From NCBI RefSeq assembly GCF_030013595.1, contig NZ_CP122768.1: a DNA stretch of 64,000 nucleotides; one strand, 5' to 3'. The stretch comes from Escherichia coli (GTDB lineage: Bacteria; Pseudomonadota; Gammaproteobacteria; Enterobacterales; Enterobacteriaceae). The notes beneath the pieces are model-generated. The model was not told the origin of the DNA, made no database searches, and was given only the letters and a program-made list of their open reading frames with translations. Made by a program: the position numbers and the translations under genes. Below, one piece after another: positions 24,370-25,248 of this stretch; the first letter of the stretch is position 1; the number at the start of each line of letters is the position of its first letter.

Positions 24370-25248
24370 CTAATCAACCTTAAACCAGCGTCGCATGGTT
24401 TTTTGTGAGGGCAGAGATAAACCAGCTTTGCAAAAATCGTTTTCTAATTCTGTTGGCTGGCCCTTGGTTTTGTCTTCTCTTACATGAAGCCATGGTTTGC
24501 CTCGCTTCGTTTCATCCTTGTAATACAGATAAAGCAAATCATCCACAAAAGCAGGCAGTGCGCTTCTTGGGTCTGGTTGTGTCGTCGGTGATGGTAGTTT
24601 TTTGGTTATGCACCCCATTAACATCCCGTTAGCGCAATCTCTCCCGCCATCCTTAAGGATTTCGATTTCTTCGGCGGTAATAAACAGGTCATCAATGCTT
24701 ACATCGAGTGGACTGGAATCAAAAGTAATCATCGGGCTGAGGGAATAATCGTCACCGTCAGTGTTCATTGTCCTTGGCTTTCCAAGAGAAAAACGAGCCG
24801 ATGACTTTCCATATTTTACAAAATCATAAAAAGGCATGGATTTGGTCAGGTTGCATATGGACATTAACCCTTCTATGGTCAAGTACCTGTATCCCATTAA
24901 AGGTATTTGGTTTTTCGGAATACCTCTGGGACGTTCTTCACTGATAAACAGAATTGCTGTTGTGACTTCAAAATCTCCCGCGCTATATGGTGTATAGACG
25001 GTAAATGGTAGCTGACACAGTGAATCGCCAAGCGGTTTAAATAAAACATACTTATCAGTTGATTTAGTTTCATAATGGTTAAACAGGTCAATTTCAGCCC
25101 GCCACCTTCCTGATATATGTGTACAAATCTCCAGCATTCCTATGTCAGCAAAATGAAGCAAATCATCAACACTGCACTTATTGGAGTTTGCAGTCAGATA
25201 ACTGGCCGCATCGCGTAGTGAGTAAAACAATCTTTTAGGTAATGCCAT
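24370..25248 (-). CDS. Low-GC cargo protein of unknown function (292 aa from first ATG), translationally coupled to int
   Basis: ATG at 25248 lies 2 nt after the int stop (TAATATG) with a GGTG RBS inside the int 3' end; ~40% GC against 52-58% in flanking island genes; possible N-terminal HTH-like segment RLFYSLRDAASYL. Confidence 0.55.
   Translation of the reverse strand: MALPKRLFYSLRDAASYLTANSNKCSVDDLLHFADIGMLEICTHISGRWRAEIDLFNHYETKSTDKYVLFKPLGDSLCQLPFTVYTPYSAGDFEVTTAILFISEERPRGIPKNQIPLMGYRYLTIEGLMSICNLTKSMPFYDFVKYGKSSARFSLGKPRTMNTDGDDYSLSPMITFDSSPLDVSIDDLFITAEEIEILKDGGRDCANGMLMGCITKKLPSPTTQPDPRSALPAFVDDLLYLYYKDETKRGKPWLHVREDKTKGQPTELENDFCKAGLSLPSQKTMRRWFKVD

Follow-up and report, generated by a model that had tools for sequence, protein, structure and literature searches.

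Within a 64,000-nt stretch of Escherichia coli DNA (contig NZ_CP122768.1 of assembly GCF_030013595.1; the whole stretch is called the window below), an island resembling phage P4 and the phage-inducible chromosomal islands (PICIs) carries an open reading frame (ORF) of 292 residues, here named X, between its integrase gene int and its alpA-like regulator gene. An earlier note, made from the sequence alone, had seen in this ORF a separately acquired cargo gene, possibly serving anti-phage defence or abortive infection. We describe here a family of X proteins with a fixed place in an int-X-alpA module, and we propose, tentatively, that X is a DNA-binding sensor that controls alpA. The module consists of the following features:

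25250-26524, minus strand: ileX-specific tyrosine integrase of the P4 family (domains Arm-DNA-bind_3, Phage_int_M and Phage_integrase)
25246-25258, minus strand: junction of the int stop and the X start, GGTGA-A-TAA-T-ATG, with a 1-nt spacer
24370-25248, minus strand: gene X, 292-residue ORF, RefSeq WP_001207580.1 'hypothetical protein'
23982-24236, minus strand: alpA/vis-like gene for an 84-residue helix-turn-helix (HTH) regulator/excisionase (phrog_66 'excisionase and transcriptional regulator', E 5e-12; an HTH regulator in RefSeq)

The reading frame of X runs from an ATG at 25248 to a TAG stop at 24370-24372, and the integrase frame (which reaches to 26515 in the 421-residue RefSeq form) ends with a TAA at 25250-25252. 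On the coding strand the junction reads GAA-TAA-T-ATG, so that X begins one base past the int stop; the distance of 2 nt given in the earlier note counts to the A of the ATG. The ribosome-binding site that it had placed inside the 3' end of int can be identified as a Shine-Dalgarno-like GGTGA at 25254-25258, within the last int codons and complementary to the UCACC of the 16S rRNA 3' end. Relatives keep this tight junction, as TAAtATG, TAAaATG, TGAtATG or the overlapping TAATG, which supports the proposed coupling of X to int. Looser arrangements also occur among the loci compared (designated below by L numbers): 156 nt separate int from X in L011, and another small ORF (181-183 residues) lies ahead of X within the available contigs of L012 and L020.

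X is a real gene and not a chance ORF, since it has 30+ homologue clusters, its termini evolve with a ratio of nonsynonymous to synonymous substitution rates (dN/dS, or omega) of 0-0.15, and it is annotated in RefSeq; its start is fixed by the conserved N-terminus M-x-L-P-x-R. The GC content of X is 0.42 (0.39 at third codon positions), against 0.51 for int, 0.53 for alpA, 0.59 for the Toprim gene and 0.60 for the DUF927 gene. The contrast in base composition noticed before is therefore real, although int, at about 51%, falls under the 52-58% then quoted for the flanking genes. In every lineage examined X has a low GC content (0.30-0.43), always 5-18 points under that of int, and because it recurs in this way low GC is a property of the family and not a mark of recent import.

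The place of X between int and alpA is maintained over large evolutionary distances. Homologues 81-86% identical to X are found in the same island in other enterobacterial hosts. The slot is also filled, by homologues of about 25-37% identity, in islands that share Int, Toprim and DUF927 at 59-85% identity and AlpA at 70%. All relatives with an Int 59-100% identical have an X homologue in the slot. Another E. coli island at ileX, whose replication module is of the RepA-helicase kind, has in this slot a 298-residue protein that hhalign assigns to the X family with a probability of 99.7% (E 1e-25). More distant X genes stand directly 5' of genes for AlpA-type proteins, in islands that have D5_N/Pox_D5 or RepA replicases. 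The gene following X encodes an AlpA-type HTH protein in all loci with readable downstream sequence (14/14), and on the other side, wherever the contig extends upstream, X is usually preceded by a P4-family integrase gene.

This constancy bears on the origin of X. The psu-int hotspot of P4 elements is a site where related elements carry unrelated systems (PMC9122126), and X shares with its cargo (PARIS, retrons, AbpAB; Rousset et al. 2022, PMC9122126) an int-proximal location, low GC content, fast evolution and rarity. The hotspot, however, lies between psu/cos and int whereas X lies between int and alpA, and the X island has no psu annotation and no match to a P2/P4-type cos site; moreover, the X slot is always occupied by the same family, and no defence domain was found in X. 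The check suggested earlier, a look at equivalent int-proximal positions in related islands, met with a single family there rather than unrelated systems. The idea of a separately acquired cargo gene is not supported: X is a fixed part of the int-X-alpA module, and low GC beside an integrase is by itself insufficient to call a gene imported defence cargo.

Other occupants of the interval are known. In X-less relatives, namely int-HTH-Icd-primase islands at tRNA-Pro, the slot is empty or contains a 76-residue ORF, and this absence implies that X is dispensable for the basic int/alpA/primase cycle. In CP4-57 of E. coli K-12 the slot is taken by yfjH, on the opposite strand. YfjH and the 76-residue ORF have in common with X the int-alpA interval of P4/PICI-like elements (PMC11773190), but neither shows detectable kinship with it and no function is known for either: YfjH was rejected as an X homologue (hhalign probability 0.1%), as was the 76-residue ORF as a reduced X, its similarity to X being undetectable. 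The latter is probably like EcCIMP1_002; in two X-less tRNA-Pro loci, L025 (E. coli SD134209) and L026 (ATCC 25922), it is followed by a strong terminator, still between int and the HTH gene.

Locus L017 (E. coli STEC2018-607, NZ_CP075697.1, 3482-11473) represents the other satellite-like island at ileX. It comprises int, an X-family gene and genes for an HTH protein, Ash/Icd, DUF4222, a RepA helicase, the single-stranded DNA-binding protein SSB, PerC and Mor, with its own tRNA-Tyr and a 'tRNA-OTHER' at the far end. Its type of alpA occurs in seven E. coli genomes.

X is rare, being found in 17/5426 complete E. coli genomes, mostly of porcine enterotoxigenic or Shiga toxin-producing strains, each time in the same island at the same site. 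An exhaustive phmmer search over 1.84 billion representatives returned 33 relatives, mostly of 250-340 residues (about 30 homologue clusters); one outlier match of 5491 residues was left out of the family alignment. Further scans added little: only three new clusters came from a profile search of a word-indexed protein database, two loci from the JGI metagenomes, and two from a one-genome-per-species scan, one of these a shortened remnant among housekeeping genes. Neither the IMG/VR scan nor tblastn of phage records yielded any relative. X and all 33 members lack a Pfam match, and NCBIfam and PADLOC contain no matching family either, which agrees with the earlier description of an undescribed gene with no known motif. 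The two PHROGs matches to X are non-significant (E 0.14 and 0.32), and a sequence-profile search of the PDB gave YopX alone, at E 1.5, which we took as noise.

Structure comparison reaches further. With Foldseek, the predicted structure of X aligned over its full length with about 60 clusters of AFDB50 at E<=1e-3, all labelled 'uncharacterized', from Enterobacterales, Pasteurellaceae, Vibrio, Acinetobacter, Stenotrophomonas and other hosts. As judged from these models, the family is widespread in mobile elements of Gammaproteobacteria. One copy, L014 (Entomohabitans teleogrylli NZ_KQ947378.1, 6001-6762), stands alone: it is a C-terminally truncated X-like ORF of 253 residues, 40% identical to X over residues 1-204, amid genes for sugar metabolism and the phosphotransferase system. 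Neither an integrase gene nor alpA is in its vicinity, and it is apparently the relic of a decayed gene.

An AlphaFold2 model of X (pLDDT, the predicted local distance difference test, 79.6; pTM, the predicted template modelling score, 0.64), together with the family alignments, divides the protein as follows:

25087-25248, minus strand: residues 1-54, predicted winged helix-turn-helix (beta-alpha-alpha-beta) with the motif M.LP.RLYY.L..AA..L...C.V.DLLHFA.IG.LE
24688-25086, minus strand: residues 55-187, central domain, beta-rich, hypervariable and of no recognisable fold
24640-24687, minus strand: residues 188-203, the most conserved motif, DLFIT..E.ELLK.GG, modelled as a strand and a helix (pLDDT 94-95)
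24373-24573, minus strand: residues 226-292, C-terminal helical domain ending in a putative HTH-like helix-turn-helix, ELENDFCKAGLSLPSQKTMRRWFK

Glu194, in the most conserved motif, is invariant in the family alignments. Residues 207-225 are modelled as a disordered linker, and the C-terminal helices at 227-243, 267-274 and 282-288. About 50 residues of the modelled N-terminus superpose at 1.7-2.5 A on winged helices of the AlpA/Vis/Xis-MerR type, so that the model supports the HTH-like segment suspected there from sequence. X resembles AlpA, Vis, Xis and the N-terminal domain of MerR in the predicted fold of its first 54 residues, and AlpA also in being encoded in the same integration zone. 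It differs from AlpA, Vis and Xis in being about four times longer, with two further domains and no Pfam match, and from MerR in having no coiled-coil dimerisation helix. The Phage_AlpA (PF05930) and HTH_17 (PF12728) profiles match neither X nor any of the 33 family members, and hhalign detects no similarity of the X termini to island AlpA proteins (0.1% for the N-terminus) or to each other. The comparisons recommended earlier with Foldseek on an AlphaFold model revealed no nuclease, NTPase, protease, TIR, SIR2 or other effector fold.

The domains of X evolve very differently. Close alleles of X have a dN/dS of 0.27-0.49 over the whole gene, against 0.00-0.11 for int, alpA, Toprim and DUF927; within X, omega is 0-0.15 in the N-terminal domain, 0.04-0.15 in the C-terminal domain and 0.28-1.24 in the centre. 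In the closest informative pairs central omega is about 1.2; over 135 codons, the alleles of the window and of STEC308 are separated by 28.5 nonsynonymous and 6.5 synonymous changes. Judged from these alignments, constrained ends around a fast centre are what a protein taking part in a molecular arms race shows. The synonymous divergence of X is moreover decoupled from that of the backbone, lying above that of int in some pairs and far below it in another, which points to allele exchange by recombination.

The 133-bp spacer between X and alpA contains a second set of signals, two 12-bp palindromes 20-21 bp apart followed by an alpA-proximal block:

24335-24346: distal 12-bp palindrome CGGACATGTCAG (coding strand), possibly one half of a tandem operator
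24315-24326: proximal 12-bp palindrome TGGACATGTCCG, just 5' of the alpA promoter-proximal block
24237-24314, minus strand: alpA promoter-proximal block, with the conserved ATGCTTYCATAT, a TGGCC-N6-GGCCA dyad and the ribosome-binding site AAGAGG

By our own reading only, the -35 and -10 elements of alpA would be TTCACG-16-TATTGT; ATGCTTYCATAT and the TGGCC-N6-GGCCA dyad are candidates for AlpA autoregulatory sites or leader structures. Even a single perfect 12-bp palindrome is present in only about 2% of random 120-mers. Across the family, the palindromes fall into four classes, each arm being itself a palindrome and the classes having G2/A4/T9/C11 in common:

Class A, CGGACATGTCCG: window, L004, L005, L006, L008 and L009, conserved despite diverged flanks
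Class B, TGGAATATTCCA: L011 and L019
Class C, CGTAATATTACG: L017, L018 and L020
Class D, CGGAGATCTCCA: L028

Two loci depart from the tandem arrangement, with a single palindrome in L020 and one large dyad in L015. The exact class A core 10-mer was found nowhere else in the 26 fetched loci; with one mismatch allowed, a scan of the window gave one other match, at 2354-2363, far outside the island.

The class of palindrome changes with the type of X. L018 and L006 have promoter-proximal blocks 87% identical over 55 bp and AlpA proteins 77% identical, with essentially the same winged helix-turn-helix, yet the palindromes of L018 are of class C and those of L006 of class A, each matching its own X type. 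L012 and L020, whose promoter-proximal blocks are 84% identical, display the same modularity. The promoter-proximal block itself co-varies with the type of AlpA and not with that of X. Read from these alignments, the spacer is modular, its palindrome part travelling with X and its promoter-proximal part with alpA. In X, identity over the C-terminal 45 residues is 52% for members of one class and 28% across classes, and the last helix has class-specific sequences: [ST][QR]K[TS]..RW in class A,.GKT[VI]..WLK in class B and G/P-V/T-T/C-V/I..KW in class C. The N-terminal helix, by contrast, is nearly invariant across classes, which implies that it does not set palindrome specificity.

Other binders of the palindromes were considered. 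AlpA is disfavoured, since essentially identical winged helix-turn-helix domains occur with class C palindromes in L018 and class A palindromes in L006 and L009; within classes B and C, AlpA proteins are only 28-40% identical. Bro-N proteins were rejected, since this island has none and they do not track the classes. TGT-N12-ACA sites of the Ogr/delta type do not agree with the palindromes in spacing. Related spacers have other repeats: the X-less loci L025 and L026 have dyad-like sites CGGTGTATACCG and CGGTGAGTACTG, 20 bp apart, 5' of the HTH gene, and L024 has instead three copies of GGAGCCAATTT and a direct repeat spaced by 22 bp.

The reading that we favour, with a confidence somewhat short of even, is that X is a DNA-binding sensor-regulator of alpA within the int-X-alpA module, comparable in logic to the repressor Stl of the Staphylococcus aureus pathogenicity islands (SaPIs). 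In a quiescent island, X would be made together with Int through translational coupling and would bind, most likely with its C-terminal HTH-like domain, the two tandem palindromes that lie past the end of X and ahead of the alpA promoter. Bound X would then gate AlpA, the master activator and excisionase, by acting on its promoter or else by stopping transcription that reads through from int and X. The input would come through the fast-evolving centre, which would recognise a product of a helper or competing phage as SaPI Stl repressors do. DNA binding by X, the sign of the regulation and the nature of the ligand are what we infer from this arrangement. X is in any case a concrete candidate for the switch controlling alpA in minimal P4/PICI-like satellites, because of its fixed place between int and alpA, its diversifying centre and the adjacent palindromes that switch class with the protein.

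Like Stl and the Rpr proteins of Gram-positive PICIs, X is a satellite protein encoded beside int that combines a predicted HTH part with a highly divergent, putatively sensing part (PMC6092414), and it too shows allelic diversity among otherwise similar islands; by analogy, it would gate the excision and replication programme upon meeting a helper protein. The differences are substantial. X has no sequence kinship or detectable fold kinship with Stl or Rpr, it would have two putative DNA-binding ends around a variable centre, and its island also possesses a P4-type RNA immunity. Whereas Stl is divergently transcribed, X is co-directional with its putative target and lies 5' of it, with the candidate operators 3' of X. 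For Gram-negative PICIs the very existence of a repressor has been called 'unclear', and alpA is reported to be switched on by a helper signal as yet unidentified (PMC6092414). A more far-reaching proposal, which we regard as rather doubtful, is that the X family forms an unrecognised class of helper-sensing master regulators, in which the C-terminal HTH would act on island-specific tandem palindromic operators before alpA, a central domain of new fold, diversifying under selection, would capture a phage protein and the conserved, excisionase-like N-terminal winged helix would connect X with Int and the att (attachment) sites. If this were true, the family would supply the 'missing repressor/sensor' of Gram-negative PICIs and explain how minimal islands choose their helpers.

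Several observations weigh against a regulatory role of X at the palindromes. The covariation of palindrome and protein was seen in only about 10-12 islands, which make up 3-4 classes, and those of class A are related to one another. The Ash-family protein also differs between classes and is an alternative candidate binder. X-less tRNA-Pro islands carry two dyad-like sites about 20 bp apart 5' of their alpA-like gene, so that a tandem-site architecture can exist with no need of X. With a P4-type immunity of C4 and isrK RNAs already present, a protein repressor is not obviously needed, and the co-directional orientation of X and alpA departs from that of Stl. Finally, the palindromes taken as RNA would form a strong hairpin (-18 to -24 kcal/mol), and in L017 a palindrome is followed by a T-run; they could be 3'-end or terminator elements of the int-X transcript.

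This last point leads to an explanation of its own, in which the palindromes are no operators but form an RNA hairpin in the int-X transcript, as its terminator, as a 3' stabiliser or as a site of processing, leaving the function of X unconstrained. The predicted folding energies, whose z-scores reach -6 to -7 in four of six spacers, and the TTTTTT after the first L017 palindrome speak for it, and a 3' element would naturally co-segregate with the gene upstream. For a hairpin, however, an inverted repeat would suffice, yet each arm is palindromic in at least three unrelated sequence classes; perfect palindromes of this length are rare in random sequence, the arms are held two helical turns apart with the four shared positions, most palindromes have no adjacent U-tract, and L020 has only a single palindrome and L015 one large dyad. 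We consider this explanation improbable. The defence hypothesis of the earlier note, in which the variable centre senses a phage component and the protein then interferes as an anti-phage, anti-helper or abortive-infection factor, we judge unlikely, but less so. It would account for the diversifying evolution of the centre (omega up to 1.24), the exchange of X alleles independently of the backbone, the persistently low GC, the rarity of X in E. coli and its optional presence across the wider int-alpA-primase islands, and satellites are known to carry defence genes beside int (PMC9122126). Positive evidence for it is nonetheless wanting: PADLOC-DB v2.0.0 gives no family even at E<=1, no effector or enzyme fold was found in X, which has no partner gene, and no relatives came from phage records or IMG/VR. 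The slot, too, always holds a homologue of the same family instead of the unrelated systems typical of hotspots, both conserved termini resemble DNA-binding modules, and X is always paired with alpA and dyad sites. Should X prove to be a defence or interference protein after all, both its single-gene system and its fold would be new.

Coupling to int suggests another role, that of an integrase accessory factor (for directionality, as an architectural protein or as a modulator of Int) produced in stoichiometric amounts with Int. The coupling is conserved over deep divergence, and an N-terminal helix that is invariant across operator classes would suit a conserved partner or site. Yet an excisionase of the Vis/AlpA type is already encoded in the island, and related islands with P4-family integrases function in the absence of X. 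A gap of 156 nt separates int from X in L011, and another small ORF stands ahead of X in L012 and L020; X is linked more tightly to alpA than to int, and a search near the att ends found no copies of the palindromes. We give such a role little chance. Least probable, in our view, is that X acts on the helper in some other manner, as an antirepressor like P4 epsilon or as a packaging adaptor similar to the small terminase subunit TerS, its HTH on island DNA and its centre on the terminase. In its favour, the island lacks any recognisable packaging, capsid or cos function, and a variable domain could match variable helper proteins. The domain order is unlike that of TerS, though, X has no sequence similarity to terminase, Rpp or antirepressor families, and a location in the integration zone with int co-expression is atypical for late or packaging functions (PMC10111431).

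The remainder of the island shows the following organisation:

18399-26709: whole island, about 8.3 kb, delimited by comparison with the empty K-12 site
23613-23828, minus strand: P4/P1-type immunity RNA module, with the C4 antisense RNA (23613-23700) and an isrK/seqA-like target (23749-23828)
19907-22769, minus strand: replication module, with a Toprim primase (21726-22769) and a DUF927 primase-helicase (19907-21745)
19630-19872: origin-like region past the 3' end of the primase-helicase gene, with a perfect 30-bp inverted repeat and iterons GGTTCCCACCAGTTCCC

The island is inserted at the 3' end of the tRNA-Ile(CAU) gene ileX (26713-26788, minus strand), between mug/rpoD and nfeF; an exact att direct repeat of at least 12 bp of the tRNA 3' end was looked for at the island and not found. 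Its genes are all co-directional, in the order int, X, the 84-residue AlpA/Vis-like HTH gene, an Ash/Icd-like ORF, two small ORFs, Toprim and DUF927. Past DUF927 come the non-coding origin-like stretch, with inverted repeat arms at 19630-19659 and 19843-19872 and at least three copies of the iteron, and then a 96-residue ORF; the stretch is probably the replication origin of the island. Successive zones for integration, Bro, replication and late functions make up the layout of Gram-negative PICI/P4-like satellites (PMC10111431). The island conforms to this kind of layout in its unidirectional order of int, alpA, immunity-RNA zone and primase, its downstream origin and its integration at a tRNA gene, and its late zone is nearly empty. 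The RefSeq annotations of the island include no sid, psu, delta, capsid, terS or late genes, a search of the island gave no match to a P2/P4 cos site, and a Bro-N protein is absent from it.

The immunity RNAs were recognised with Rfam, C4 (RF01695) at 79.6 bits against a gathering threshold of 45 and isrK (RF01394) at 60.7 bits against 50; they have been described as kin of the P4 CI immunity RNA and its seqA target (PMC10111431). Both sit inside the Ash/Icd-like ORF 23358-23963 (RefSeq 'host cell division inhibitor Icd-like / ash family protein'), and this 201-residue call may be partly spurious or overlap RNA genes. A c4-a1b1 target at 23789-23841 scores below the Rfam threshold.

Two direct repeats were noticed in the island. 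The first, of 43 nt and 88% identical, links 19061-19103, in the terminal 96-residue ORF (18917-19207), with 20441-20483 in the DUF927 gene, and its sequence suggests a partial duplication of the 3' region of the helicase gene. The second, of 21 nt (16 nt exact, CCTTGTGTGGCGCGGG), lies near both island ends, at 19298-19318 and 26650-26670, inside the att junctions; by sequence, its copies could be arm-type Int or AlpA binding sites. In L001 (E. coli cq9, NZ_CP031546.1) the island is otherwise identical, with an integrase annotated as frameshifted, an IS4 between mug and rpoD, and X intact. In L006 (Logan SRR30000128 contig, 13330-15027), the X-bearing island adjoins genes of a P2-like prophage (Ogr/Delta, gpD and gpU), a hint that P2-like phages may be the helpers of this island family.

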